A stretch of DNA of 60,244 nucleotides from Candidatus Cloacimonadota bacterium (lineage in GTDB: Bacteria; Cloacimonadota; Cloacimonadia; JGIOTU-2; B8-G9): positions 1 to 60,244 of the forward strand of contig QMNM01000001.1 of the NCBI GenBank assembly GCA_003647765.1, read 5' to 3'. Under the pieces are notes generated by a model, which searched no databases, was not told the origin of the DNA, and worked only from the letters and a program-made list of their open reading frames with translations. A program made the translations under genes and the position numbers. Every line of letters starts with the position of its first letter. The first letter of the stretch is position 1. This document shows positions 3,101 to 35,966 of this stretch, piece by piece.

Positions 3101-5302
3101 TGGGAATCATTACTCAATGATTTGGAGGCTCATTCTCTCTATCAGAAATACAAAGAGATTCAGGATTTGATTAAAGATACCAAATTCTATTCTCCTCGTA
3201 TGAGAGATCCTGATGCTTCTGATATGATTGTAGTTGTAGAGAGAGAAAAATTCTTGGAAGAATACAGGAAGGCTTATAGAGAGACAGGTAATAGAGCGAA
3301 GGCTTTACAGCAAGCGTATTATGCGACTGCGAATGCCAATGGTGTCTATTTAAGAGAGCATGTTAGAAGAATAGATCCTGATTATAAGAGAAAGTTAGAG
3401 CATATTCAGTCTGTATTTAAAGATAGCAGGTTTCTTGTGCAGAGATTACCTAATTACAAGTTAGCGGAATCTGTCTGGGGCAATGTAAGTGAAGGAGATC
3501 TAGGAGCATTTCTCTCTGCTGTTGCAGAAAAAGTAAGGAAAGAAAATGTTGATTCTGAAACTTTAATGGGATTCTTGGAGAAGGTTGCAGATACAATTCA
3601 GACTGAATTGTTAGCTAAAAGTAGAGCAAAACAGAGATTTATTAAGAGAAATCCTTATCTGATTTTAGGATATACTCTGGATAATGTAAGGGAAGAATTA
3701 TTCAATTATGTAAACAATGCTTCTAATTATGCTGCCCGAATGGTAGCATTGGTAGAAGGATTACCTTTATTGAATCAAATAGATCCTTATCAGCAGAGAA
3801 GGTTGAGAGATTATGCTCATAAATGGTTCTTTGATCAATTGAAGCCACAGAGCCAGTTTGATCGTATTGTAGGAAAAGTAAAATCCTTGATGTTTATCTG
3901 GTATTTGGGCGGAGTGATTCGTCCTGCTTTAATTCAATTTACACAAATGTTTATTTCTACCATTCCAATGACAAGTATTGTTTATGATATTCCAATAACC
4001 AGAAGTATCTCTGTTTTTATGAAGGCTTATAGAGATGTATTGGATCACAGGAATTTAGATGAAAATAAGTATTTGACTGCGGACGAAAAAGAGTTCCTGC
4101 GGATTACATATACAAGTGGAATAACCACAGCTCAATTTATCAATCAGATGAGAGATGAAGTTGCGGGCAGAGGAAAAGTTCTCTCTACTCTGGCTACTTG
4201 GTTGACTACTCCTTTTGCATATATGGAAGAAAATAACAGGCTGGCAACAGCTTTAGGAATTTACAGGATTTTGAAAGAGAAAGGAATAGTCAGGCATGCA
4301 AAGGATAAGAAAGCTATGGAAGAAGCTACAACAATTGTTAATATGTCTCATTATTTAATGGGTAAACTCAATCTTCCTATTATAGCAACAGGTGGAGATG
4401 TGGCTTCTGGTTTAATGCGTCTAGCTCTTACTTTCCGTTCATTTACATTAAACTTATTAGAATCTTATATTTACATGCTCCGACATCTGCCTAAAGGACA
4501 GAGAGTTTGGGGTCTCAATAAAGAAGGATTGAGATTTGTTGGATATAGTTTTGCTGCCTTTACCTTATTCGGTGGAATTCTAGCAATACCTTTCCTTGAT
4601 GACTGGCTACAATTATTAGAAAGATTGACAGGAATTCCTATAAGAAAAAGGTTAGTTACTGTATTTGGAAATCCAGATTCTCCGCTATCTGTTGCTTTAG
4701 AAAGAGGATTACCTGCTGCCCTGATAGGTATGGATTTAAGCGGTTCATTGAAGATAGAATTCCCAAGACGACCAGAAGATATTTTGAATACTATTTTTGG
4801 AGTATATGGTGGACTTTCAAAGAGTTTTGCGGACGCAATGGTTGCTTTAGATGGTTATGATAGTTTGAACATCTTGTATAGGATTATGCCACAAGTGTTT
4901 GCCAATCCGATCAGGGCTTATGAAGCATATAAAGGAATAAAGAATCAATACAATAAAGTAATTCTGGACGAAGAAGGGCGACCATTGAGACTTACAGAAG
5001 GAGAAGCTGTCCTACTTGCACTTGGAATTAGACCAACAAGGTTGGGCAGAACTTATCTCTATAAGAGCACAAGTAGGAACATAGAAAAATACTTTGATAG
5101 TAAGCGGAAGGCTATATACAATGCTTATAGAAGTGCAAAGACTGCATCAGAGAGATGGAAAGTTTACAGGATGATTTATGAATATAACATGGAAGCTGCC
5201 AAATATGTATCTATTCCAAAGATTACTTTACAATCCCTGAAGGCAGCTTCCAAACCTGTTGAGAGCAAGCTAACACAAGAATTGAAACTTAAGGGTTATT
5301 AA
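1..5302 (+). CDS. Giant virion/ejection, polyvalent-like protein, C-terminal part. It is the continuation of 57084..60244 across the circular junction.
   Basis: The frame is open from base 2. Positions 23 and 60144 are equivalent and in frame with the ATG at 57084. An HExxH motif (HEILH) lies at 1679-1693. Several hydrophobic TM-like segments occur near the C-terminus (SLMFIWYLGGVIRPALIQF, FVGYSFAAFTLFGGILAIPFL). It is the last gene of the structural operon. Confidence 0.8.
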   Translation, partial: EKREEDILKWLDDNTESLPEDSFHPELIPDYTPIPSKPVLKRKPERVSMFSFGVDSDLSLKKKIESAYSIFQNDWREFLQARKERLSLAWKAVSKGIISPEEVDKFDFVVSALEWVKGTDFKHLIKRGLVNEKEARVRIKFFETYAQRVWNAIGERLTGLDNVLKSWARGELNSIDPKDTIHIRGLIEDALSDYPAYTLQQLIELRRAHRIEIIRRLSKSYAYTLLDRFIEKGRKIDKSSLDAIYKQLRKYVIGSYVLAIEGNERSPLLKELMGAGLSKQQAIQLVKNSSARATLFYLDYFWSNYVKESMGFYRLDTPLGWAGGLFKWTWDLIKLDFNALPAKSKRLLVGELEDNILPTIDKFIEFGDKLLSIRKTLELPEYKHISAIRALMKKLRDTIDAYLNKSLDVKKAQRELEHIWNVIVDKYAVGNHRVLAKLVARELFLTNARIGLHRKDVSDFERYKYQSDGFLRFLKRYNDAYSALLYLAKNGEGATKIVAEHLLKLPYTSIVLPHVPIRFVENLFGGKTTGLYRPYEGNMFGEIIVDPNALPDIFEATIFHEILHALTLHTLHFSKKREEYRERINSIINDIRPLISEEEYKLGKWIVENEARLTKHELKEKIDKTIAKDSLLQEHVARYGKQSWLSFLVSLHDPDEFIVTAITEPAGKLFLIEHDKKSIWRKILDFIRNLLGFPVEKRELFIRTVDTLMDIVAESHPIYVAAFRKYFKLPINKTLYQLAMASAEELSDLANRIQKEHELTRQRINLSDFEDKVKDFVEHIRTYKAPPQMKDINIIREKFGLPFWTALQNESFKPLFDHVTKTMENKNFTLHAILQKGETYFNGLDEKRRKYVDSAIKISDALQVRFTEEHLRNFPRVISNMKIAFNLMYQLLKQEERSGLNRKQRAERRQVVLQRLNEATKLDLPKEYSQPQYVIRFKHFFDYARLPIDKLSDEEIKAYNNYAEVTQETLNHLGDTFLSLVCKLVIKNYLQKLKIDVPSTVQTQWINTLVEFGKDIEQARERVARMNPEAREIWESLLNDLEAHSLYQKYKEIQDLIKDTKFYSPRMRDPDASDMIVVVEREKFLEEYRKAYRETGNRAKALQQAYYATANANGVYLREHVRRIDPDYKRKLEHIQSVFKDSRFLVQRLPNYKLAESVWGNVSEGDLGAFLSAVAEKVRKENVDSETLMGFLEKVADTIQTELLAKSRAKQRFIKRNPYLILGYTLDNVREELFNYVNNASNYAARMVALVEGLPLLNQIDPYQQRRLRDYAHKWFFDQLKPQSQFDRIVGKVKSLMFIWYLGGVIRPALIQFTQMFISTIPMTSIVYDIPITRSISVFMKAYRDVLDHRNLDENKYLTADEKEFLRITYTSGITTAQFINQMRDEVAGRGKVLSTLATWLTTPFAYMEENNRLATALGIYRILKEKGIVRHAKDKKAMEEATTIVNMSHYLMGKLNLPIIATGGDVASGLMRLALTFRSFTLNLLESYIYMLRHLPKGQRVWGLNKEGLRFVGYSFAAFTLFGGILAIPFLDDWLQLLERLTGIPIRKRLVTVFGNPDSPLSVALERGLPAALIGMDLSGSLKIEFPRRPEDILNTIFGVYGGLSKSFADAMVALDGYDSLNILYRIMPQVFANPIRAYEAYKGIKNQYNKVILDEEGRPLRLTEGEAVLLALGIRPTRLGRTYLYKSTSRNIEKYFDSKRKAIYNAYRSAKTASERWKVYRMIYEYNMEAAKYVSIPKITLQSLKAASKPVESKLTQELKLKGY

Positions 5303-7673
5303 AACTCAAATCCTTTCCTATTTTTCCTTCAGTTTCAATGGGGTATCCAACATTGATGCCCCAATGCTTTTTTATGTATTCTTTCGTTCTATTTTCAAAA
5401 CAATCTTTCAATATCTCTTGTGCTTTTTCGGCAACATCTTCTCTTGCTCTATAATAGTAGGCATCGTGGATAAAAAGGTTAGTCAGGATTACTTTATCTT
5501 TCAGGTCGGGGCGGGATTTTATTTCCTTCCAGAACAACATTATTCCAAGACATGCTAGTTCGCTACTGAAATTCTGAACAGGAGTATTGATTGCCTGCCT
5601 TTCCGCTTTACTTCTCAACCTGAAATCATCAGAATCAATATGCGGTAAATGTCTTTTCCTTCCTAAAACACATCTTATATACTTATGCTTTCTTGCAAAC
5701 TTAACCATTCGTTCATGATATAAAGGAAGTTTCCAGTATCCATTGGGTTTAGAGAAGAAAAGTTCTCTATATCGCTCTGCTTCTTCTAAAGTGAAGACGA
5801 CATCATAGTTTTTAAAAGCATAATCAACCAGAGAATTTGCCTGCATTCCGTATATTAATCCAAAATTTATCGGCTTTGAGAGCTGTCTCAAGTCTTTAGT
5901 AATTTCTTCTAAAGGCTTTCCTGAAATAAGGGAGGCTGTTCTTTTATGTAAATCTATCCCTTCATCTAAAGATTTCAGGATATTTTCATCTTGAGCCAGC
6001 CAGCCTATTATTCTCATTTCACTTTGACTTAAATCCTGACTGCATATAACCCAGCCATCTTCGGCTACAATATTTCCCAAAACCTTTTCAGAGAATTCTC
6101 CGTGTGCTGGAAATTGTTGCATAGGAGGGTCTAATATTACAGTTCTCCCTGTTACTGTTCCTGTTAGGAATATCTTTGGGTAAATATATCCATCTGGATA
6201 CAGATTTTTTCTTATTGCTTTGATGTAAGTGTTCAGAATTTTGCTTATCTGTTTATATCTTAATAGCTTTGCGACCCATTCGTTATCTTTGAATCGTTTT
6301 AGATGATATTTATCGGTAGAAGGTTGTTTTGTTTTTTCTGTAAATTCAACAGGTTTCAATCCCAGCCCTTTCTTTGTAAACATAAACTTTGCAATGATGT
6401 CGGGAGTTAATGAGTCTGCATCTTTCTTTATTGATTTAGGGATAGCATCCATTAATTCCTTTTCCAATTTTTTCATCTCTGTATAGAGAGAATCTTCGTT
6501 TTCATCTAGTTTATTCAGGTCTATTTTCCATCCGTTCGCAGATACATCGCTGAAAACGTTTTCAACGGGAAGGCAGTAATATTTGTAATATCTGGTTAAT
6601 TTTTTATCTTCCATAATCTTTTTCTTCAGGACATTGAAGACTTCAATAGTAACTTTAGCATCAAGACTGACATAATTCAGGAGCTTGCTTTCTTCTAATT
6701 TTTCCATCTCTGTCCTATTTCTATTCACTACATCTTTTATATTGTAGTAGGAAGTGAAGACATTTGCCAGATGCTCTAGGGAATAGGAAGCTAGGTTTTC
6801 ATCTACAACATGAGCCATTGTCATTACATCAAATATTTGTCCTTTAACTTCGCAACCAAGATTCTTTTTACATACAAGTTCATCAAAAGGACGATTATGC
6901 ACGACTTTCTTTATATTCTCATCTTCCAGTATTTTCTTTATACTTTCTTTGAGTTTATTGTCTTTGGTAAGGGATGCGTAGGGCAACCCTTCTTTTCCTG
7001 CCAGACCTATACATAAGACTTTTCCTTTCATGTGTGCGACCCGCAGGTTCTCTGTTTCAAGGTCAAAAGCTATTATTTTTCCTTTGGGCAAATTGATTGT
7101 TGTATATTCATGTTTAAAATCTTCCTTCTGTTTATAGAGAGCGACAGCATGTTTGATGTCGGCATAAAACAATTTCTCTACTTCATTCATCTTTTCTAAT
7201 GGAATATACGGATACCCACGCTTGCATTGTCTTAAAACATAGGCAGGATGAAATGTTGGAATAACAACAGCATCTCCGAAGGGAAATTGTAGTCCTCTGA
7301 AACTGGAAATTCTTTTCTTATTGAACATCTGATAGAGAGCCAGTTCTCCTAATAAGACAATCACTTTGGGTTTGAGGATTCCCAGAGCTTTTACAACATG
7401 TTCTTTACAGCACTTTGATGCTTTTTCTAAATCGGTTTTTTTATCCTGCCCTAATTTCTGGCACATTGTAGCATTCAAGATAGATATATCTACTCTAGAC
7501 ATCCCAAAGAGTGAAAACGTTTTCATTAAGAGTCGCCCACTTTCTCCTACAAAAGGACGACCTTCTCTTACTTCTTCCCACCCAGGACCTTCTCCTATAA
7601 CCACAAATTCAGGATTATTTTTCTCATATTTAACTTTCTTTCTTCCTTTAAAAGGACAATCTTTACAGCTCAT
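5289..7673 (-). CDS. polA: Family-A DNA polymerase fused to an N-terminal family-4 uracil-DNA-glycosylase-like domain and a 3'-5' exonuclease domain.
   Basis: UDG4 motifs GEGPG..PFVGESGRLL and HPAYVLR, plus N-terminal Cys residues. Exo I motif FDLETENL. Pol motif A DLSQSEMRI and motif B RQLSKPINFGLIYGM. Motif C-like IHDA. Confidence 0.9.
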   Translation of the reverse strand: MSCKDCPFKGRKKVKYEKNNPEFVVIGEGPGWEEVREGRPFVGESGRLLMKTFSLFGMSRVDISILNATMCQKLGQDKKTDLEKASKCCKEHVVKALGILKPKVIVLLGELALYQMFNKKRISSFRGLQFPFGDAVVIPTFHPAYVLRQCKRGYPYIPLEKMNEVEKLFYADIKHAVALYKQKEDFKHEYTTINLPKGKIIAFDLETENLRVAHMKGKVLCIGLAGKEGLPYASLTKDNKLKESIKKILEDENIKKVVHNRPFDELVCKKNLGCEVKGQIFDVMTMAHVVDENLASYSLEHLANVFTSYYNIKDVVNRNRTEMEKLEESKLLNYVSLDAKVTIEVFNVLKKKIMEDKKLTRYYKYYCLPVENVFSDVSANGWKIDLNKLDENEDSLYTEMKKLEKELMDAIPKSIKKDADSLTPDIIAKFMFTKKGLGLKPVEFTEKTKQPSTDKYHLKRFKDNEWVAKLLRYKQISKILNTYIKAIRKNLYPDGYIYPKIFLTGTVTGRTVILDPPMQQFPAHGEFSEKVLGNIVAEDGWVICSQDLSQSEMRIIGWLAQDENILKSLDEGIDLHKRTASLISGKPLEEITKDLRQLSKPINFGLIYGMQANSLVDYAFKNYDVVFTLEEAERYRELFFSKPNGYWKLPLYHERMVKFARKHKYIRCVLGRKRHLPHIDSDDFRLRSKAERQAINTPVQNFSSELACLGIMLFWKEIKSRPDLKDKVILTNLFIHDAYYYRAREDVAEKAQEILKDCFENRTKEYIKKHWGINVGYPIETEGKIGKDLSFNNP
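6551..6564. repeat. TGAAAACGTTTTCA palindrome, perfect copy, inside polA.
   Basis: Read as E-N-V-F. Confidence 0.95.
7512..7525. repeat. Palindrome, perfect copy, inside the polA UDG domain.
   Basis: Read as K-T-F-S. Confidence 0.95.
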
Positions 7674-28334: not shown

Positions 28335-28693
28335 CGGATAGCCTCCTTTACAACCAGAGACTCTAAAATGTTCTCTACTATCAAATAAAGCCTGTAATTA
28401 TCTTTCAAAACCACATCGCTTACTTTCATTCCCATGATTTCTTCAATAGGGAATCCGACCATATCCATGATTCCATGTGCCGTGTCCACAATCACAGTAG
28501 AATTGATAAAAACCAGCTTATTTTTATTTTCTTCATATTCTCCATTCTTCGCATCAAGCAAAATCCTGATCGCATCGTCTATTCTTTCTTTATACGCTTC
28601 ACTTCTCCTGCTCAAACTCTCCTTCGCTACATTTAAATTTGCAGAAAGCATATTCTTCTTTTCCATATAGTCTAAACATTCCTTTACTGTCAT
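28331..28693 (-). CDS. Hypothetical protein.
   Basis: ORF in the operon with overlapping stop and start. Confidence 0.5.
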   Translation of the reverse strand: MTVKECLDYMEKKNMLSANLNVAKESLSRRSEAYKERIDDAIRILLDAKNGEYEENKNKLVFINSTVIVDTAHGIMDMVGFPIEEIMGMKVSDVVLKDNYRLYLIVENILESLVVKEAIR

Positions 28694-29118
28694 AATTCCC
28701 CCCGCAAAGTTTTGACTAATACTCTAGTTAAATTATTGATTCCGTAATAATATGCTCCGTTCCTATCCCGATACCATACAGTCCGCACAAGACTTTCTCT
28801 AATGTCAATATGCCACCCTGGATTGTTCCAGAATGGATAAAACCCAATTGCTCCTATTTTTCTAAATTGGGACAATAAACAAAATTGCTCTAAATAGGAA
28901 AATCTATCTGGACTCACTTTCCAATGAAAATCCACTGCCATTCCTTTATAATGGAGTGATTTAGGAGAGTGCCCGCTGTCGTCCCACGCAACATGGATTA
29001 TAATCGGAAACCCAGACGCTTCTCTTATTTCATCCATCAGAAATACAAGGGAAGGAATAACTTTGTCGGGATCTTTCCTGAATTCTTCTTTTTTAAAATG
29101 TTTTACTCTCTCCCACAT
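28690..29118 (-). CDS. Peptidase M15-type peptidoglycan hydrolase (endolysin candidate).
   Basis: HFKKEEF, SGHSPKSLHYKGMAVDFH and GWHIDIR form a His/Asp/His Zn-ligand pattern. The ATG at 29118 follows AAAGGAGG. Confidence 0.7.
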   Translation of the reverse strand: MWERVKHFKKEEFRKDPDKVIPSLVFLMDEIREASGFPIIIHVAWDDSGHSPKSLHYKGMAVDFHWKVSPDRFSYLEQFCLLSQFRKIGAIGFYPFWNNPGWHIDIRESLVRTVWYRDRNGAYYYGINNLTRVLVKTLRGEL

Positions 29119-29164
29119 AAAATCCTCCTTTAATTTAAAATGATGTTGTGCAAAGAAAAGCAAA

Positions 29165-29760
29165 ACTCAACAATGCCACAGCAAGGGATTGGTAAACTTG
29201 GCACTGCCGTTGCCGCTCCTTACGAAACAATGCCTATGCTACTCTTTACGAAACAACACCTATCCTTACGAAACAGCACCTATGCTGCTCCTTACTGAAC
29301 TATACCCTGGCGATTCCTTACAAAACAATGCCTCTGCGATTCCTTGCCATACTAAACCTACGCCGAACACAACGATACTGCACTTAACCCCTGCCTATAC
29401 AACGCTACGCATTGTAGCACACCGCCCTTGCTATGATATTCAGTGCTTTGCCAATGCAAAACTTCTTGAAGCATTGCTCCGCCTTTGCTAAACCTGACTC
29501 TGCTAATCTCTGCCTCTGCTATACCTAGCCACTCCTTACTACTCATCACCACTGCTGGACAACTCATTACTTTCCGTCGCTTCACCGTTGCGAAACTAGG
29601 TATTACTTCGCCATTGCAAATCAGCACTCTACTTGACCATGCCTTTCCATTGCGTCCCACAACCCAACCATACAGAGCAATACCATAGCTTAACGGCACA
29701 GCACTAAACCATCGCCCGACTGGGCAACGCCTCTGCTCTGCAAAAATATACTATACGATG
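29165..29760. other. Non-coding island of roughly 600 bp. The plus strand is G-poor and C-rich, with degenerate roughly 26-bp repeats. Candidate ncRNA or cis element.
   Basis: In 29221-29280 I count 19 C and 6 G. Repeats of CCTTACGAAACA.. occur at 29216-29345. The three overlapping ORFs here have no SD and an atypical amino-acid composition. Confidence 0.7.
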
Positions 29761-29766
29761 CCATTA

Positions 29767-30390
29767 CTACTTAACTCTTTCCCAAGTAAATCTTCCATAC
29801 CCACCATTTCTCCATTGCCCTAGTCCCTTCAGTTTTCCATAATCCAGCAATGTTTCTATTACTTTCCAATTCAATTCTTTATGTGGAAGAAGGGCTATTT
29901 CTATTTCAAATTCAACAGGATCAATAAAATCGGAACTGATTAATGAAACTCTAGGACCTTGTGGAGTGTTGGCACGCAGAGACCGCTCTAATCTTCCATC
30001 AGGCTTCTCTTTCAACCAGATATATCGTGGAAAAACAAACACATAATTGTCAATCTTGCTCCGCAAGTTCTTTATTTTCAGTATATCTTTCAACACATTC
30101 CCAGCTTCTTTCAGGAAACCTTTGATATGATAATCCATTAAATAAACTCCATCAGCGTCAGTGTAGAAACCAGTTTCTCCCTGCCCTTCAGGAGCTAATT
30201 TCTGTTCTATCTGCATCTGCATTTCTTGCTCATCTAACTGCTCTGGATCAGCATCCATTAAATCTTCTTCCTTTCCATAATACTTTGCCTGAACATATCT
30301 TGTGAAAACTTTTAAATCTTTAGGGATACTGCCCAGCAATTTCTCAATCAAAATGATTTTATACTTTCTCTTATCCATCTCTATACCCAT
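29767..30390 (-). CDS. RAMP/Cas6-like protein. Tentative.
   Basis: The C-terminal GLGQWRNGGYG (29794-29826) fits the Cas6 glycine-rich loop pattern GhGxxxxxGhG. HIKGFLKEAG resembles the RAMP ..KG.lR.. motif. The N-terminal strand is KYKIILIEKLLG. Confidence 0.35.
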   Translation of the reverse strand: MGIEMDKRKYKIILIEKLLGSIPKDLKVFTRYVQAKYYGKEEDLMDADPEQLDEQEMQMQIEQKLAPEGQGETGFYTDADGVYLMDYHIKGFLKEAGNVLKDILKIKNLRSKIDNYVFVFPRYIWLKEKPDGRLERSLRANTPQGPRVSLISSDFIDPVEFEIEIALLPHKELNWKVIETLLDYGKLKGLGQWRNGGYGRFTWERVK

Positions 30391-30401
30391 CACGCCCTCC
30401 T

Positions 30402-30857
30402 TTAAAAATATTTTTCTATCAAATCCAAATCTTTTAAAGCCTCATCCATATAACTTTCAGCATTGATTTCTGGATCAAAGTAGAGATAAATATTGAACAG
30501 ATGCTCAAGAATTTTGCCGAAATAGGCAAACTCAAACCTGTTCCTGACCGACGACCAGATGTCATCTCCTAATGCCAGCAGAAAATTCAAATAATACCTG
30601 ACATCAAACTCTTTCTTACTTTTCTTCACATCTTCAAAAAATTCTTCTGCCTTCTTGCTAGTAATCGCAAGCTCTTTTCCTAAATCTCCCTTGAATGTAG
30701 CATAGAGATACTCCCGAAGTCTATCTCTCCTTCTCTTGATTGCATTTAACCATGCCCAAACTTTAATAGGGAGATGCTTCTGCCTGAACATTTCAATGAA
30801 GGCTTCATCAGATAGGCAGGCAAGATAGAAGAATTTACGCTGATCTTTGCGTGCCAT
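30402..30857 (-). CDS. Hypothetical helical protein.
   Basis: The ATG at 30857 follows GGAAGGAG and a variant palindrome copy. Confidence 0.55.
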   Translation of the reverse strand: MARKDQRKFFYLACLSDEAFIEMFRQKHLPIKVWAWLNAIKRRRDRLREYLYATFKGDLGKELAITSKKAEEFFEDVKKSKKEFDVRYYLNFLLALGDDIWSSVRNRFEFAYFGKILEHLFNIYLYFDPEINAESYMDEALKDLDLIEKYF

Positions 30858-30871
30858 CTCCTTCCCCTTAT

Positions 30872-30885
30872 TGAAAACATTTTCA
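30872..30885. promoter_or_regulatory. Palindrome variant (CA centre), upstream of the SD of 30402..30857 (minus strand).
   Basis: It lies 6 nt from GGAAGGAG and abuts the stop of the 30886 gene. Confidence 0.9.
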
Positions 30886-31134
30886 CTACAACTTTTTCTT
30901 CTTATACTTCCTTGCCATGTTCACTTTTCTCAATCTAACACTCTTTGGCTCTTTATAATGCTTGGACAACTTCTTCCTGCCCTTCGCAGTCAAATCCAGC
31001 GTCCCTTTTTTCAAATATCCCAACTTTTGCCAATGTCCAACAATAATCCTATACGCTTCCTCTCTTGGAATCTTTTTCTCTCTCATTAAAGCTGCGACAG
31101 CATGCTCTACTGGTTCTGGAACTTTCTTTCCCAT
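30886..31134 (-). CDS. Small basic protein.
   Basis: 82-codon K/R-rich ORF. Confidence 0.5.
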   Translation of the reverse strand: MGKKVPEPVEHAVAALMREKKIPREEAYRIIVGHWQKLGYLKKGTLDLTAKGRKKLSKHYKEPKSVRLRKVNMARKYKKKKL

Positions 31135-31207
31135 CCCTTCACCCCTTTTTGTTAATGTTTACTTTAATTACTAATTTTAAAAATGTCAATACTAAAATTT
31201 TAATTTT

Positions 31208-31414
31208 TTATTTTCTCTTACTCAATTTTCTCAAAGTAAGAGCAAGTCTTGCTTTTCTCGCAACCCTTCCACTTCCTTTTGCTTTCTTTCTCAACCATGA
31301 AACTTTGATTGTTCCATCAGGATTCAATGCTCCTTCTCTCTTTGCAATTGCCCGCAGAGACCCTGGTCTCTTAATTGCCTTCTGAATCCATTTGTTATCT
31401 TTCTTCTTTGCCAT
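31208..31414 (-). CDS. Small basic protein, first gene of the leftward block.
   Basis: The ATG at 31414 follows AAGGAG. N-terminus MAKKKDNKWIQKAIKRPGSLR.... Confidence 0.5.
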   Translation of the reverse strand: MAKKKDNKWIQKAIKRPGSLRAIAKREGALNPDGTIKVSWLRKKAKGSGRVARKARLALTLRKLSKRK

Positions 31415-31832
31415 TTTTCTCTCCTTTTTCTGATCTTCCGAAATTATTTCCAATTTTCCAAAAATATCTCCGATTTTTAAAAATTATTCCCAATCCTATC
31501 AAAATATTCCCAAATCTCCAAAATTCTAAAATTTTCTCCTTTTTTCTGATTTATTTACCAAAATCCCTGATTATTTTCAATCTCCAAGTATTGAGCAGGG
31601 AATCAAAAATTTTGACATTAACAAAAAGTTTACATAATTCTCCGTCGGCGTGCTAGGTCGTATTAGTGTATTGATAAAGACGGGAAAATTTGTTTTTGTT
31701 TTCAAAAAGTTGTAGAGAATCCCTACTAGAAAATTCCAATTAGAGTCAAAAAATTAATTTTTGCAAAAAGTTTTTCAATTTTTCTCAAAATTTCTCAAAA
31801 TTTCTTCACAAAGCTCAATGTCAGTTCAGATA

Positions 31833-31855
31833 GCCTTAAGCCTTAAGCCTTAAGC
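31833..31855. repeat. Tandem heptamer (GCCTTAA) x3.
   Basis: gccttaagccttaagccttaagc. Each junction creates CTTAAG. Confidence 0.9.
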
Positions 31856-31899
31856 AGACCAAAATAAACCACGAGTTCTGGAAAGAAAAGAAAAGTGCA

Positions 31900-31978
31900 T
31901 CTCTAAATAAAATATTAAAATATTTTATTCAGAGACTTATAGTAAAATATAGACATTTACATGTCTTATATTTTACTA
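31900..31978. repeat. Two adjacent AT-rich hairpins. The second carries TATAGAC/GTCTTATA.
   Basis: 31900-31935 reads tctctaaataaaatatt..aatattttattcagaga. 31940-31978 reads tagtaaaatatagacat-ttac-atgtcttatattttacta. Confidence 0.75.
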
Positions 31979-32259
31979 AAGGCAAAAGAAAAGAAAGATA
32001 AACAACTAAATAAAACTAAAAATAAAAAAATATATAAATAGCCCTAGCACTATACCCTTAAGCCATTTTTTATTTTACTTTCAATTTTTGTAGGGAGACA
32101 CTTGATTTCTCCTATAAACCATTGAAAAATAAAGTTTCGCTGGAAATTTTTGATTTTGTCAGTTTAAATTTGAAATGTTGGTAAGGCAGAGAAAGCAACG
32201 CTTCCTGTTGTTTGATTTTGTCAAAAATGAAATTTCTCTATTTTTTATTGAAGTTGTTA

Positions 32260-32288
32260 TTGACAAAATGATTTTTGTGTATTATTGT
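32260..32288 (+). promoter_or_regulatory. Sigma70-like promoter of the structural (rightward) operon.
   Basis: TTGACA, 17 nt, TATTGT, about 20 nt before the ATG at 32309. Confidence 0.6.
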
Positions 32289-32308
32289 TAAGGAAAAAGG
32301 AGGTGGGC

Positions 32309-32659
32309 ATGGAAGAAAAATTGCGGAATAAGTTGATTGACTGGTATTACAAAGAAGGGCTTTCTCCTGGAGAGATTGCGGACAAGATTGGGAGGAGCAG
32401 GTCTGCGGTTTATTTTTTGCTTCGCAAGTATGGTCTTCCATTGAGAGGAGATGAGAAGGGAAGGAAATTGTTATCTCCTGCCTGTCCGAAGTGTGGCTCT
32501 CATGAAGCGATTACGCTAGTGTCTGCGAATGGAGGGAGTGAAATTATCCGCTACCGAATTTGTAGAAAGTGCAAGTATAAGTTCAGAACAAAGGAGGTGA
32601 TAATTGGAAGGGCAGATAGCGATAGTGGAGACATGGTCTCCAGCAAACAGGACTCTTGA
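32309..32659 (+). CDS. HTH plus zinc-ribbon DNA-binding protein (candidate transcription regulator).
   Basis: GLSPGEIADKIGRSRSAVYFLLRKYG is the HTH. CPKCGS...CRKCKY is the ribbon. The start is the ATG at 32309 after AAAGGAGGTGGG. Confidence 0.6.
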   Translation: MEEKLRNKLIDWYYKEGLSPGEIADKIGRSRSAVYFLLRKYGLPLRGDEKGRKLLSPACPKCGSHEAITLVSANGGSEIIRYRICRKCKYKFRTKEVIIGRADSDSGDMVSSKQDS

Positions 32660-33059
32660 TATTACAGTGATAGCAGAGACTTTAGATGAGATTGTAGATA
32701 AAATTGGTTTAGTCAAGCATGGAGATGCGAGGATAATAACTTATGATCCCATCCCTTTACACCCCTTATTGGTGCAGTATGTAAAATTGCCTAAAAACGA
32801 AATAGAAGGAGGTTTGAGCGTTTTACAGCCATTAGAAGAATCTTACATTGCGATGGATTTTTGGACTGATGTTTATTACAGGCTTCTATTGGAAAAAAAG
32901 ATTGATAAATCTGTGCCTGAGTTTGTGTATGGGAACATTGTATTGAATTCTTGCAAGAAGTTTGATCCGAATGTTATAATAAGAGTGTTGGAAAGGAATT
33001 TCTTGGCATGGAAGACGAAGGTGAAGGTTTTTCGTTATACTGGAAATCCAGCGGATTGA
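32604..33059 (+). CDS. Hypothetical protein with a TTG start that overlaps the 3' end of the regulator gene.
   Basis: AAGGAGG lies 6 nt before the TTG at 32604. The TGA stop is part of a palindrome copy. Confidence 0.5.
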   Translation: MEGQIAIVETWSPANRTLDITVIAETLDEIVDKIGLVKHGDARIITYDPIPLHPLLVQYVKLPKNEIEGGLSVLQPLEESYIAMDFWTDVYYRLLLEKKIDKSVPEFVYGNIVLNSCKKFDPNVIIRVLERNFLAWKTKVKVFRYTGNPAD

Positions 33060-33070
33060 AAACGTTTTCA
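33057..33070. promoter_or_regulatory. Palindrome, perfect copy, upstream of the terL SD.
   Basis: Its TGA is the stop of 32604..33059. It ends 4 nt before GAGGAGGG. Confidence 0.95.
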
Positions 33071-33083
33071 CTAGAGGAGGGCG

Positions 33084-35966
33084 ATGGAGAGTTTCTCTAT
33101 AAACGAAGTTCCTTATAACTTCAATGATGTTCCTACCATTAAGAAGTTTTATCTTTCAAACAAGAAAATCAGGGCTATTGTAGGACCGTATGGTTGTTTT
33201 CCAGAATATTGTGAGTATTTGAGTTTTTCTGATGGAGAATATCGCTGGAAGAAGATCAAGGATTATCAAGAAGGGGAAAAGATTGCGGTTTATGATTTTG
33301 AGACAAAGGAGCTTCGGTTTGAGAAGCCTTTGGCTTATGTAAAGCTCCCTATGAATGATCTCTGGATTCATATTCGTGGCAGTAGATTTTTTGAAGCGAT
33401 AGTTTCTCCTGAACATGTCTTTCCCTATATTGTGTCTCATTCTGGGAAATATGGAGTGAAGTCCATTACTGAATTGATTAAGTGGGGGATTACGAATGCA
33501 AGGGTGGTTAATACTTTTCGCATTTGTGGGGAGACTTTTGGTTTAGATGAGTGGTTGGTCAGGTTTATAGCGATGCTTTCTGCTGATGGGCATAAGTGTT
33601 CTGATACCAGATGGCAGGTTTCTTTGAGGAGACGGAGGAAGATTGAGAGGTTGGAGTTTTTGTGCAGGAAGGTAGGAGTTCCTTATTCTCGTAAAGTTTA
33701 TGATTCCCGTCCTACTGAAAATGTTTTCATTTTAGATTTATCTTCTCATCCGCAACTTGCGGGGTTGACCAAGAAGTTTCCGAATTATTTTTACAATTTA
33801 TCTTCTGATTTACTTGATGTTTTAGTGGATGAGATTTTGTATTGGGACGGCTCATTTTACAATGGGAATGATAGGAGATATTTTACGACCATTAAGGAGA
33901 ATGCTGAATTTATCCAGTATGCTTCTCATGCAACGGGCAGGCGTGCTTCCGTTCTTAAAGTTTCGTATCCGAAAGATAATTGGAAGGATTGTTATATTGT
34001 TCATATTTCTGGGAAGGGGGTAAAGAAGACCTGTTTTATTGACAAGGATGCTCCTAAAGATAGGTCAATAAGGTATATTTCTCCGAAGGAAGGTGAATTT
34101 AAGTATTGTTTTACCACTTCAACAGGGTTTTTTCTTGTTAGGTTTAATGGAGCTGTTTATATTTCTGGGAATTCGGGCAAGTCATCTGGTTGTGTTATTA
34201 CTATGCTTCGTCATACTTGTGAGCAGATGCCAGATCCGCATGGGATAAGGAGAACTAGATGGGTTGTTGTTAGAAATTGTTATTCTGATGATACAGAGAT
34301 TCTGACAGAGAAGCGGGGCTGGGTATTGTTTAAAGATTTACTTCCTGATGATAAGGTGGCTCAATATAATCCTGCGACTGATAGATTGGAATTTGTAAAG
34401 CCGACTTATTATTATCGCTCCTATTATAGTGGAGATATGATTTGGGTTCATTCCAGTAGAAAGGAGCTTGATCTTCTTGTTACTCCAGATCATAGGCTTT
34501 ATGTTGCTGATTATAAAGATGGAAAGTGTGGGTCTTTTGATTTTAAAATGGCAAAGTTTTGTTATGGGAAGAAAGTTGCTTTTATTGGTTCTGATGGAGA
34601 GTTGATAGTTGCAGATGAATCTGATTGGGATATGGTAGCTTATAGTGGAATGGTTTATTGTGTAGAAGTTCCTACTCATATCATTTTGGTTTGCAGGAAT
34701 GGAAAACCAGTTCTTTGTTCCCAGACTTACAGACAGCTGAAGGACACAACCAAAAAGACAATAGACTACTGGTTGCGGTTTGCAGAATGGAGAGAATCAG
34801 AGTTTAAGTATATTCTCAAGTTCAGGTTGCAGGATAATACGATAGTGGAGTCTGAATGGCTTTTGAGAGCGTTGGACAGACCAGAGCATATTGCGAATTT
34901 ACTTTCTTTAGAGATAACGGGTGCGTGGTTGAATGAAGCAAGGGAGATTCCGAAGGAGATTTTTGATGCGATAGAAGGAAGATTGCGTTATCCTCCTACA
35001 ATAAGAGACAGAGATGGGAAAGTTTTATATGGTCCTACTTGGTTAGGGATTTTGTTAGACACGAACCCTCCTGATGAAGATCATTGGTTTTACAAGTATT
35101 TTGAAGAAAATAGACCAGAGAAAGCGGAGATTTTTCATCAGCCATCTGGTTTATCTCCTGAAGCGGAGAATATCAGGAATCTTCCTCCGAATTATTATCA
35201 GGATCTTTGTGTTGGCAAGGATCAGGATTGGATAGATGTTTATGTGCATGGGAAATATGGTTCTGTAAGGTCGGGCAAGCCTGTATTTTCTCTCTACAAT
35301 GATGAGATTCATTGTGCGAAAGAGCCGTTAGCTCCATTGATGGGATTTCCGTTGATAATTGGAATGGATTTTGGTTTAACTCCTGCTGCTGTGATTTTAC
35401 AGAAGCCTCCACGCAGGTTATTTGTTCTTGATGAAGTTGTAGCTGAAGAACCGATTGATGTAATTGAGTTTATTCGTTATATGCTTCTTCCTTTTATGGA
35501 GGAGAAGGAATTTTATCGGGGCAAGAATTTCATAATTGTGGGAGATCCAGCAGGTAAGGCAAGGTCGCAGGTTGATGGAAGGAGTGTATTTGAAGCGATA
35601 AATCAGTTAGGGTTGCGTGCTTATCCTGCCTATACGAACTCTTTACAAATCAGGTTAAATGCGGTAAATCAATATTTAACAAGATTGGATACTTTTGCTG
35701 GGGAGATGAAGCCAGCGTTTTTATTATCTCCTACTTGCAGGATGCTGAGGCAAGCCTTGAAAGGGAAGTATAGGATGAAAAGGGTAGCGACTGGGACAGA
35801 TATGTATTCTGATGTTCCTGTGAAGGACAAGTGGTCGCATGTTGCGGATGCGTTGCAATATGGAGCTTTAGGGTATAGGAAGCCGACTTTTAATGAAGAA
35901 TTTGATGAGTTTTCTAACATAGAAGGGCGGGGAGGACCAACGCATTTAGGAACAGGTATTTATTAA
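33084..35966 (+). CDS. terL: Terminase large subunit interrupted by two inteins. The spliced product would be about 485 aa.
   Basis: The split Walker A is IVGPYG / SGKSSG. VVVRN / TYRQLKDTT is also split. Walker B-like WLNEARE. Nuclease motifs IIGMDFGL, GDPAG and HVADALQY. Confidence 0.9.
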   Translation: MESFSINEVPYNFNDVPTIKKFYLSNKKIRAIVGPYGCFPEYCEYLSFSDGEYRWKKIKDYQEGEKIAVYDFETKELRFEKPLAYVKLPMNDLWIHIRGSRFFEAIVSPEHVFPYIVSHSGKYGVKSITELIKWGITNARVVNTFRICGETFGLDEWLVRFIAMLSADGHKCSDTRWQVSLRRRRKIERLEFLCRKVGVPYSRKVYDSRPTENVFILDLSSHPQLAGLTKKFPNYFYNLSSDLLDVLVDEILYWDGSFYNGNDRRYFTTIKENAEFIQYASHATGRRASVLKVSYPKDNWKDCYIVHISGKGVKKTCFIDKDAPKDRSIRYISPKEGEFKYCFTTSTGFFLVRFNGAVYISGNSGKSSGCVITMLRHTCEQMPDPHGIRRTRWVVVRNCYSDDTEILTEKRGWVLFKDLLPDDKVAQYNPATDRLEFVKPTYYYRSYYSGDMIWVHSSRKELDLLVTPDHRLYVADYKDGKCGSFDFKMAKFCYGKKVAFIGSDGELIVADESDWDMVAYSGMVYCVEVPTHIILVCRNGKPVLCSQTYRQLKDTTKKTIDYWLRFAEWRESEFKYILKFRLQDNTIVESEWLLRALDRPEHIANLLSLEITGAWLNEAREIPKEIFDAIEGRLRYPPTIRDRDGKVLYGPTWLGILLDTNPPDEDHWFYKYFEENRPEKAEIFHQPSGLSPEAENIRNLPPNYYQDLCVGKDQDWIDVYVHGKYGSVRSGKPVFSLYNDEIHCAKEPLAPLMGFPLIIGMDFGLTPAAVILQKPPRRLFVLDEVVAEEPIDVIEFIRYMLLPFMEEKEFYRGKNFIIVGDPAGKARSQVDGRSVFEAINQLGLRAYPAYTNSLQIRLNAVNQYLTRLDTFAGEMKPAFLLSPTCRMLRQALKGKYRMKRVATGTDMYSDVPVKDKWSHVADALQYGALGYRKPTFNEEFDEFSNIEGRGGPTHLGTGIY
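33195..34172 (+). mobile_element. Intein 1 (326 aa) with a LAGLIDADG homing-endonuclease domain, inserted in the terL P-loop.
   Basis: It starts with Cys38 (CFPEY...). Block B is VSPEH. The LAGLIDADG-like segments are FIAMLSADGH and VDEILYWDGSF. It ends ...VYISGN, followed by Ser. Confidence 0.85.
33716..33729. repeat. Palindrome variant (TG centre), inside the intein 1 endonuclease domain.
   Basis: Read as E-N-V-F. Confidence 0.9.
34278..34724 (+). mobile_element. Intein 2, a mini-intein of 149 aa, in terL.
   Basis: It starts CYSDDTEILTEKRGWVLFKDL. Block B is LVTPDHRLYV. Block F/G is VYCVEVPTHIILVCRNGKPVLCSQ, followed by Thr. Confidence 0.8.

Follow-up and report, generated by a model that had tools for sequence, protein, structure and literature searches.

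Systems of the kind called Viral Interference Programmable Repeat (VIPR) are built around Vipr, a protein of about 20 kDa that has been described as an early-branching RAMP and that occurs mostly in phages and prophages (10.64898/2026.04.26.720920). According to this preprint, Vipr is encoded alone or with one accessory gene (vap), and the vipr gene is flanked by intergenic vrRNA regions made of tandem pentanucleotides, in which a conserved GGY alternates with a hypervariable NN. Other clades use NNNGG, YNNNG or NNNNG repeats, and the arrays can be continuous ("staggered"), separated by ribozymes, or reduced to single vrRNAs. VIPR represses transcription experimentally, and its natural targets are given as competing phages, satellites, and prophages (10.64898/2026.04.26.720920). 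Here, we describe a gene-free island at positions 29147-29767 of a 60,244-nucleotide stretch of contig QMNM01000001.1 (assembly GCA_003647765.1; referred to below as the window), which very likely represents the vrRNA (guide-RNA) array of a VIPR system with repeats of the YNNNG class.

In the cryo-EM structures reported in the companion preprint, one Vipr protomer binds each repeat; H17 and D177 recognize G1, R138 and W178 hold G2, and Y3 is lodged in a pocket with R179, while the NN bases are presented for DNA pairing, with one target base skipped per unit (10.64898/2026.04.26.720927). Both preprints appeared in 2026 and come from one group (10.64898/2026.04.26.720920, 10.64898/2026.04.26.720927), and as presented in them, transcription and copurification of the RNA have been shown only for SUSP1, P. 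fulva, and representatives of types III and V. VIPR, known only from these 2026 preprints, is a form of RNA-guided DNA recognition that may predate CRISPR. The kind of system is therefore already described, and the locus analyzed here is a further and well-delimited example. It belongs to a large clade, with more than 750 proteins and metagenome-assembled genomes (MAGs) of more than a dozen lineages, whose repeat is the less-studied G-Y-N-N-N and whose arrays are long and continuous. The island had been singled out in a preliminary description made from the letters of the window, and such an array can thus be picked up by a reader from the raw sequence.

The island comprises 620 bases between an M15 peptidase gene and a gene for a 207-aa protein, both on the minus strand. 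Read on this strand from 29767 to 29147, it resolves into about 120 uninterrupted G-Y-N-N-N units, as parsed by dynamic programming with an iteratively refined position matrix. Of these units, 98 are pentamers and 22 are hexamers, the sixth base of the latter being a G that forms GGY with the next unit. Position 1 is G in 93% of the units and position 2 is a pyrimidine in 87% (A in 11%), with positions 3 to 5 being variable and C-poor. The first base of the array is the last one of the stop codon that ends the gene for the 207-aa protein, and the last 10 units or so of the array (about 29147-29215) are degenerate. In a Fourier scan, only one sharp peak appeared, at 5.2 nt. Its power in the island (37, in 400-nt windows) was the highest of the 60 kb, where the median was 3.5 and the 99th percentile 12. 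The longest run of units elsewhere in the window was 16, and shuffled controls reached 14 to 17 for the whole window and at most 25 for sequences with the composition of the island.

The preliminary description had seen degenerate repeats of about 26 bp in this region. These repeats are real, as TRF recovered a period of 26 with 3.2 copies and a period of 20 with 1.9 copies, and a repeat search found five copies within 29217-29365 and one more at 29533 (families D1, D2, and D4); what had been missed was the basic G-Y-N-N-N unit. The higher-order repeats extend over 29216-29365 on the minus strand as six diverged copies of a five-unit block of 26 nt (5+5+5+5+6; one copy has 20 nt) with the form GYnnn GTttc GTaag GAnnn GCnnnG. 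The 26-nt repeat is therefore a duplication, at a higher order, of five units that later diverged. The motif GTAAGGAG, noted for its resemblance to a Shine-Dalgarno (SD) sequence, occurs in three perfect copies (29216, 29288, and 29532), the only ones in the 60 kb, with four one-mismatch copies beside them, exactly as first counted. It is the junction of two adjacent units (GTAAG-GAGnn).

Regarding base composition, the island has a GC content of 0.47 versus 0.37 to 0.38 in the adjoining genes and represents the GC maximum of the whole window, so the higher GC content reported earlier holds. RNA made from the minus strand would contain 32% G and 15% C. The 19 C and 6 G counted earlier for 29221-29280 are correct, the preference of plus-strand G for TGC and CG contexts is borne out (54 of 88 residues, versus 36 ± 4.5 in shuffles), and the hexamers GCATTG, CAATGC, and GCATTG, put forward as alternative pairings, do lie at 29409, 29452, and 29471. 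The strand asymmetry, on the other hand, had been overstated when it was called extreme and abrupt, as the GC skew of the island (-0.37) falls within the range of the flanking minus-strand genes (-0.24 to -0.41).

The gene that precedes the array in the direction of transcription (29767-30390, minus strand; vipr-like gene in what follows) has its ATG at 30390 behind GGAGGG and its stop codon, TAG, at 29769-29767. The product, on record as RLC49275.1, matches no Pfam, PHROGs, or NCBIfam family, although 751 homologs were found in a large protein collection. An alignment of 40 of them revealed a nearly invariant C-terminal loop, GLGQ[W/F]RNGGYGRF, and two conserved arginines, R136 and R139, which in the structural model fall within a long beta-hairpin (132-156); we infer that this hairpin, with its invariant arginines, may be the thumb. 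The AlphaFold2 (AF2) model itself is of good quality (pLDDT 88.6, pTM 0.80), and its top Foldseek matches in the PDB are type VII Cas7, Csm3, Cmr4, and the Cas7 domains of Cas7-11 (E values of 4e-8 to 1e-5, TM score of about 0.5, probability 1.0). The family profile also reaches PDB Cas7 (E value of 1.3e-3) and Csm4 through the G-loop, and the best match in BFVD is a phage "Cas system-associated RAMP superfamily protein" (E value of 9e-18), followed by two archaeal-virus proteins. The protein is thus predicted from its modeled fold to be a small stand-alone RAMP of the Cas7/Csm3 type. These structural matches agree with the RAMP-like character first ascribed to the neighbor gene. The accompanying idea, that the island is a substrate of an adjacent Cas6-like protein, was essentially the answer as far as a RAMP substrate is concerned, but the protein appears to be of the Cas7/Csm3 backbone type and not a Cas6 endonuclease.

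For a direct comparison, we located the type II locus of Escherichia phage SUSP1, the characterized VIPR example, in KT454805. In this locus, a 195-aa gene (28474-29061) is accompanied by one of 146 aa, and both flanking gaps hold GGYNN repeats with tails; the numbering used in the cryo-EM preprint falls on the stated amino acids of the SUSP1 gene. Both loci contain a small stand-alone phage RAMP (207 aa in the window and 195 aa in SUSP1) with a G-loop of the form G-x-G-x-W-R...G-R-F, in which the W and R that deal with G2 and Y3 are kept. Both also have intergenic tandem pentanucleotides that adjoin the gene on the same strand and that combine a conserved G/Y scaffold with hypervariable remaining positions. 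In the alignment, which covers the G-loop only, W178 of SUSP1 corresponds to W193, a position with W or F in the family, and R179 to R194, which is invariant, while D177, the reader of G1, is replaced by the invariant Q192, which fits the loss of the first G in the repeat of the window clade. The repeat differs: G-Y-N-N-N with three variable positions in the window, a strict GGY-NN in SUSP1. Set in another register, the window repeat is the YNNNG of the VIPR preprint. The arrays also differ in architecture. That of the window runs on without a break for about 120 units, with an additional G roughly once in five units, whereas the vrRNAs of SUSP1 are separate, measure about 100 nt with 9 to 16 repeats, and each end in a structured tail of about 40 nt. 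Lastly, we could recognize no vap gene in the window, a situation accepted in the preprint, which includes stand-alone vipr genes (10.64898/2026.04.26.720920).

We fetched relatives from IMG/VR viral contigs (80 loci) and from prophage-like regions of MAGs and other species-representative genomes (35 loci), which left 108 non-redundant loci. The contigs range from 32 to 67% GC and represent many phyla, and the MAGs are assigned to more than a dozen lineages. The first three relatives (74%, 61%, and 58% identity) already showed a gene-free G-rich stretch of 440 to 675 bp behind the gene, and a same-strand array of 20 to 318 units lies within a few kilobases of the homolog in 103 of the 108 loci. 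In most loci the array abuts the RAMP gene, either downstream, upstream, or on both sides, and a Fourier period of 5.15 to 5.25 nt was obtained at every locus with an array. Same-strand units total 10,317 across the loci, and the runs on the opposite strand are mirror parses of GC-type units or are short and near the noise level. The G-rich strand is thus always the coding strand of the RAMP gene, which points to a transcript. The arrays of the relatives share no alignable sequence, only the 5.2-nt phase. The other neighbors of the RAMP gene vary between loci, and neither tblastn with the window neighbors nor clustering of 1,277 neighboring open reading frames (ORFs) revealed a partner gene common to the clade. 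In practical terms, a 5.2-nt G periodicity next to a Vipr homolog is a simple test that annotates these arrays reliably.

The units of the relatives follow the same rules as those of the window. Among 7,221 units, position 1 is G in 96% and position 2 is Y in 92%; pentamers account for 79% and hexamers for 19%, with G as the sixth base in 83% of the hexamers. The distance from one hexamer to the next is not geometric but peaks sharply at 4 to 7 units (mode of 5), and one hexamer per about five pentamers explains the constant period of 5.2 nt. This recurrence suggests that the filament is punctuated, be it for structure or for processing, and it possibly corresponds to the staggered arrays with a 1-nt overlap of the published classification (10.64898/2026.04.26.720920). 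Mismatch rates were calculated from 33 pairs of related arrays, which are not independent of each other, and amount to 5.8% at the G, 9% at the extra G, 18% at the Y, and 24 to 27% at positions 3 to 5. Such rates are those of a conserved scaffold with three hypervariable positions, a pattern that would be expected of specificity determinants.

Some of the related loci have particular features. Very long arrays are found in L071 (2042-2987 and 3565-5221, with 182 and 318 units on either side of vipr), L079 (3673-4822), and L043 (3750-4781), and greatly exceed the 9 to 16 repeats that make up a vrRNA of SUSP1. A search for hammerhead and other ribozymes in 20 related loci yielded only tRNAs. Several relatives have a tRNA gene a few hundred bases beyond the array on its downstream side, as in L043 (5082-5152), L045 (4624-4692), and L071, where one of the two tRNA genes (983-1054 and 5610-5680) is upstream instead. 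Through these nearby tRNAs, the array transcript could be provided with sites for processing by RNase P/Z. One locus comes from a cultured thermophile, Caldicoprobacter algeriensis TH7C1 (NZ_JAHUQD010000006.1, 29325-35921), in which the homolog has 46% identity and an 88-unit array directly downstream. In L009, three genes of 197 aa were at first taken for tandem Vipr paralogs, but only one of them is Vipr.

We assign the island to VIPR with high confidence, as it combines a stand-alone Cas7-like phage RAMP, a same-strand array that begins at the stop codon of its gene, and a conserved G-Y with hypervariable remaining positions. Within the window, the array has no self-target (the best match was 16/21). 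The repeat anatomy, the Cas7-like fold matches of the neighbor RAMP, and the near-obligate same-strand pairing across about 100 unrelated loci are what we observe; that the array is transcribed, that a filament assembles on it, that it targets DNA, and what role it plays would follow from homology with the published systems of types II, III, and V. By this analogy, the array would be transcribed with the upstream vipr gene or just after it, and the Cas7-like Vipr would polymerize along the transcript with one protomer per pentanucleotide unit. Each protomer would sequester the conserved G and pyrimidine of its unit and present the variable bases, so that the filament could bind matching double-stranded DNA of competing phages or prophages and silence it.

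Several points weigh against this assignment. The locus and its clade are known here from sequence, and their expression is presumed. The similarity to the SUSP1 Vipr is weak and limited to the G-loop (hhalign probability of 70%; hidden Markov model [HMM] score of 10.9 bits), and tblastn of the window Vipr against isolated phages hit only four uncultured gut phage records without reaching SUSP1. As sequence similarity is confined to the G-loop, the link with VIPR rests on the fold, the G-loop residues, and the architecture of the locus. The Vipr set of the preprint comprises 2,664 proteins (10.64898/2026.04.26.720920), of which RLC49275.1 may be one. The window array has neither a conserved 3' tail of about 40 nt nor a ribozyme between guides (hammerheads and tail-like conserved segments being absent also from the 20 related loci), and across the clade we found no conserved accessory (vap) gene. 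Neither did we find a target for the window array. Two decoded window 21-mers are absent from IMG/VR in an exact scan, and the one metagenome match of a decoded window block, inside a bacterial sfsA gene, is at chance level. Finally, eight or nine decoding rules applied to 1.3 Mb and 3.2 Mb of related phage DNA produced no excess over controls with shuffled units.

A single candidate guide-target pair emerged from the relatives. In L006, whose Vipr is 74% identical to that of the window, the seven units that come after one hexamer and close with the next (block 5956-5991), read as contiguous positions 3 to 5, give AGGAGGAGATCATGGAAGAAA(G), a perfect match of 21 to 22 nt to positions 1728-1748 of L012. 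The matched site comprises the start codon of an AlpA/HTH_17-like gene located just upstream of vipr, together with its ribosome-binding site, and the decoded 21-mer occurs once in all of IMG/VR, at this very place. L006 retains only a truncated remnant of the alpA homolog (about 4030-4120), without the site, and the equivalent array block of L012 is mutated. A scan of the sister group found no other pair; two further matches, L057 to L089 (18 nt) and L063 to L039 (15 nt, in a ribosome-binding-site region), were discarded as being at chance level or driven by composition.

We can propose, only tentatively and with the odds somewhat against it, that this clade, with G-Y flipped out, reads three contiguous bases per unit, triplet by triplet and without a skipped base, and that the extra G punctuates guides of about 12 to 21 nt. 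The three equally hypervariable positions, the replacement of Asp by an invariant Gln, the peaked hexamer spacing, and the L006/L012 match are hints in this direction. The geometry would be the published one, in which 5 nt of guide serve 3 nt of target, except that the base once skipped would now be read; this would fit both the three variable positions and the D-to-Q change. Against such a code, the L006/L012 match is a single post hoc example with no overall statistical excess, and the purine-rich decoded strings are biased toward matches that resemble ribosome-binding sites. If three bases per unit are indeed read, this would be a second decoding rule on the same protein scaffold, with a bearing on the evolution of the code and on the design of programmable Vipr proteins.

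Other explanations for the island can be weighed with the same data. The preliminary description had considered a ribosome or SD sponge, in which the GTAAGGAG sites titrate 30S subunits or a plus-strand transcript mimics the anti-SD. The concentration of the three perfect and four one-mismatch copies in the island would agree with it, but these octamers are by-products of adjacent pentamers, and five of the seven lie within the six recent duplicates of one 26-nt block. In addition, the SD-like pentamers AGGAG and GGAGG are sparse in 146 arrays of relatives (1.65 per kb) and essentially missing from the GC-rich ones. What is conserved across loci is the G-Y phase and not GGAG, so that we see hardly any room for this explanation. 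We would give just as little credit to a large structured noncoding RNA (ncRNA) acting through its fold, as a GC-rich island in an AT-rich genome might suggest. The island is the highest-GC stretch, but the fold z-score of its transcript is only -2.2, and with so much more G than C there are few Watson-Crick partners. The Rfam scan that had been recommended as a check matched no family, since the whole window gave zero matches at the gathering score (CRISPR-DR families included) and positions 28900-30000 gave only chance-level matches (mir-2068, MIAT) at E values up to 10. The relatives have no alignable sequence in common, and the free evolution of positions 3 to 5 in every unit is incompatible with a conserved fold. 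Of the long ncRNA first imagined, the RNA from the minus strand most likely stands, whereas a stable fold is improbable. An element acting at the DNA level, such as an iteron origin, a G-rich R-loop primer of replication, or a 5.2-bp phase for a duplex-binding protein, has a very small probability in our estimation. Direct repeats of 20 to 26 bp do resemble iterons, the sense strand is G-rich, and 5.2 is close to half of 10.4 bp. However, there is no 10.4-nt harmonic in the Fourier scan, and the 5.2-nt average arises from the mixture of hexamers and pentamers. The fixed strand of the 10,317 units points to a transcript, and in the homologous systems that have been published it is RNA that acts. 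Across unrelated phages with differing neighbors, the arrays follow the RAMP gene and not replication genes, which also leaves the R-loop primer proposed earlier without support.

A protein-coding origin, be it one of the ORFs, a recoded gene, or a decayed gene, can practically be discarded. The three ORFs listed in the preliminary description exist: a 113-aa ORF on the minus strand (29358-29699), within the array, which the ENA annotation calls as a gene, and two on the plus strand (29189-29491, 100 aa, and 29485-29688, 67 aa). We judge all of them to be spurious. There are stop codons in all six frames across the island, and the period-3 signal of the ORFs is 0.3 to 0.6, compared with 2.4 to 3.2 in three flanking genes and only 0.47 in the fourth, the M15 gene, while their period-5.2 signal reaches 10 to 20; a 5.2-nt repeat cannot hold a reading frame. 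The arrays of relatives differ greatly in length and sequence, and no gene is called in the stretch of L010 that corresponds to the 113-aa ORF. As the island ORFs have no Pfam match, the coding homolog that would have contradicted the noncoding nature of the island did not appear, and the island can be regarded as noncoding. Gene callers put spurious ORFs into such arrays, and the 113-aa ORF is probably one of many array-derived "proteins" in metagenome gene catalogs. A different possibility keeps the RNA and the RAMP together but dispenses with DNA guiding: a decoy ribonucleoprotein, in which the Cas7-like filament mimics a crRNA backbone and soaks up CRISPR or other RNA-binding defense proteins of the host. 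It is in keeping with the Cas7 fold, the phage origin, the very long uninterrupted array without obvious guide boundaries, and the failure to find targets. Even so, it seems quite unlikely, since positions 3 to 5 are hypervariable even between sister phages, as expected of specificity determinants, the published relatives are programmable DNA binders, and a 21-nt decoded match to a regulator gene of a sister phage was found.

Beyond VIPR, the closest solved folds are those of Cas7, Csm3, and Cmr4 of class 1 CRISPR systems, including type VII Cas7, with which the window protein would share the RRM core and the G-rich loop. By inference, both would also form by polymerization of identical subunits along a guide RNA, whose bases are flipped out at a constant interval. 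This interval differs, as it is 5 nt in the window and occasionally 6 (19% of the units are 6 nt) but 6 nt for Cas7, and in the phage-borne window system the flipped bases would be sequence specific (G and Y) and encoded in the guide itself. The window also lacks a repeat-spacer array (with 24- to 48-nt repeats), a repeat handle, and spacers. None of the ten ORFs around the island belongs to a Cas family in Pfam, so there are no Cas5, Cas6, Cas8, Cas10, or adaptation genes among them. RNA anti-CRISPRs (Racrs) and the RNA repeats of type III toxin-antitoxin systems (ToxI) are likewise carried by phages, as tandem or single repeats, and exert their effect through binding to a RAMP or an endoribonuclease. 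However, their repeats are structured, identical, and 28 to 36 nt long, whereas the window unit has 5 nt with free positions, and its array has neither an adjacent toxin gene nor similarity to CRISPR repeats. A recurrence of a fixed base at the protomer spacing of an oligomeric RNA-binding protein is also known from TRAP, which reads GAG/UAG every 5 nt, and from the coat protein of tobacco mosaic virus (TMV), whose origin of assembly has a G every 3 nt. Their folds and functions are unrelated, and their RNAs carry no programmable information.

The contig that carries the array (k141_1273563 in ENA, 62 kb, also on deposit as a "Candidatus Cloacimonadota" MAG contig) contains a SU10-type portal, a small terminase, and an endolysin. 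It is thus a phage-like contig, of a hydrothermal-sediment phage that was binned with a Cloacimonadota MAG. The DNA of the island has no similarity to any of 50,697 phage records, and the search for tRNAs and tmRNAs was negative. Downstream of the island, a short spacer (29119-29146, minus strand) carries the ribosome-binding site AAAGGAGG of the M15 peptidase gene (28690-29118, minus strand), with its true ATG at 29118. A scan of the minus strand detected no terminator between the array and this gene and no convincing promoter in the island; a -10-like TATAGT/TATATT near the start of the array was weighed as a promoter and dropped as unsupported.

Directly upstream of the vipr-like gene, a 151-aa gene (30402-30857, minus strand) is a candidate accessory (vap-like) gene only. 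Its homologs (47% identity) are restricted to the sister phages L006, L013, and L014, where each stands behind a second repeat array; in L006, the homolog (7079-7561) comes directly after a second and shorter array (6884-7116). The protein matches no Pfam, PHROGs, or NCBIfam family and has no other relatives in a large protein database, and its single-sequence AF2 model is unusable (pLDDT 47). It is possible that this is an accessory gene specific to the clade.

Further upstream, a very basic protein of 81 aa (31208-31453, minus strand) has a subthreshold match to the family of Fusellovirus VP2, a DNA-binding capsid protein (E value of 1.9e-5; 25.4 bits, the cutoff being 27). It also matches three PHROGs whose function is unknown. 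A STIV_B116-like gene is found elsewhere on the contig, so that families resembling those of archaeal viruses occur on a contig binned as bacterial. The divergent intergenic region at 31600-32200 is AT-rich (GC content of 0.28 to 0.30), and the GC skew switches sign there between the minus-strand and plus-strand gene blocks, making this region a better candidate than the island for a replication origin or an early promoter.

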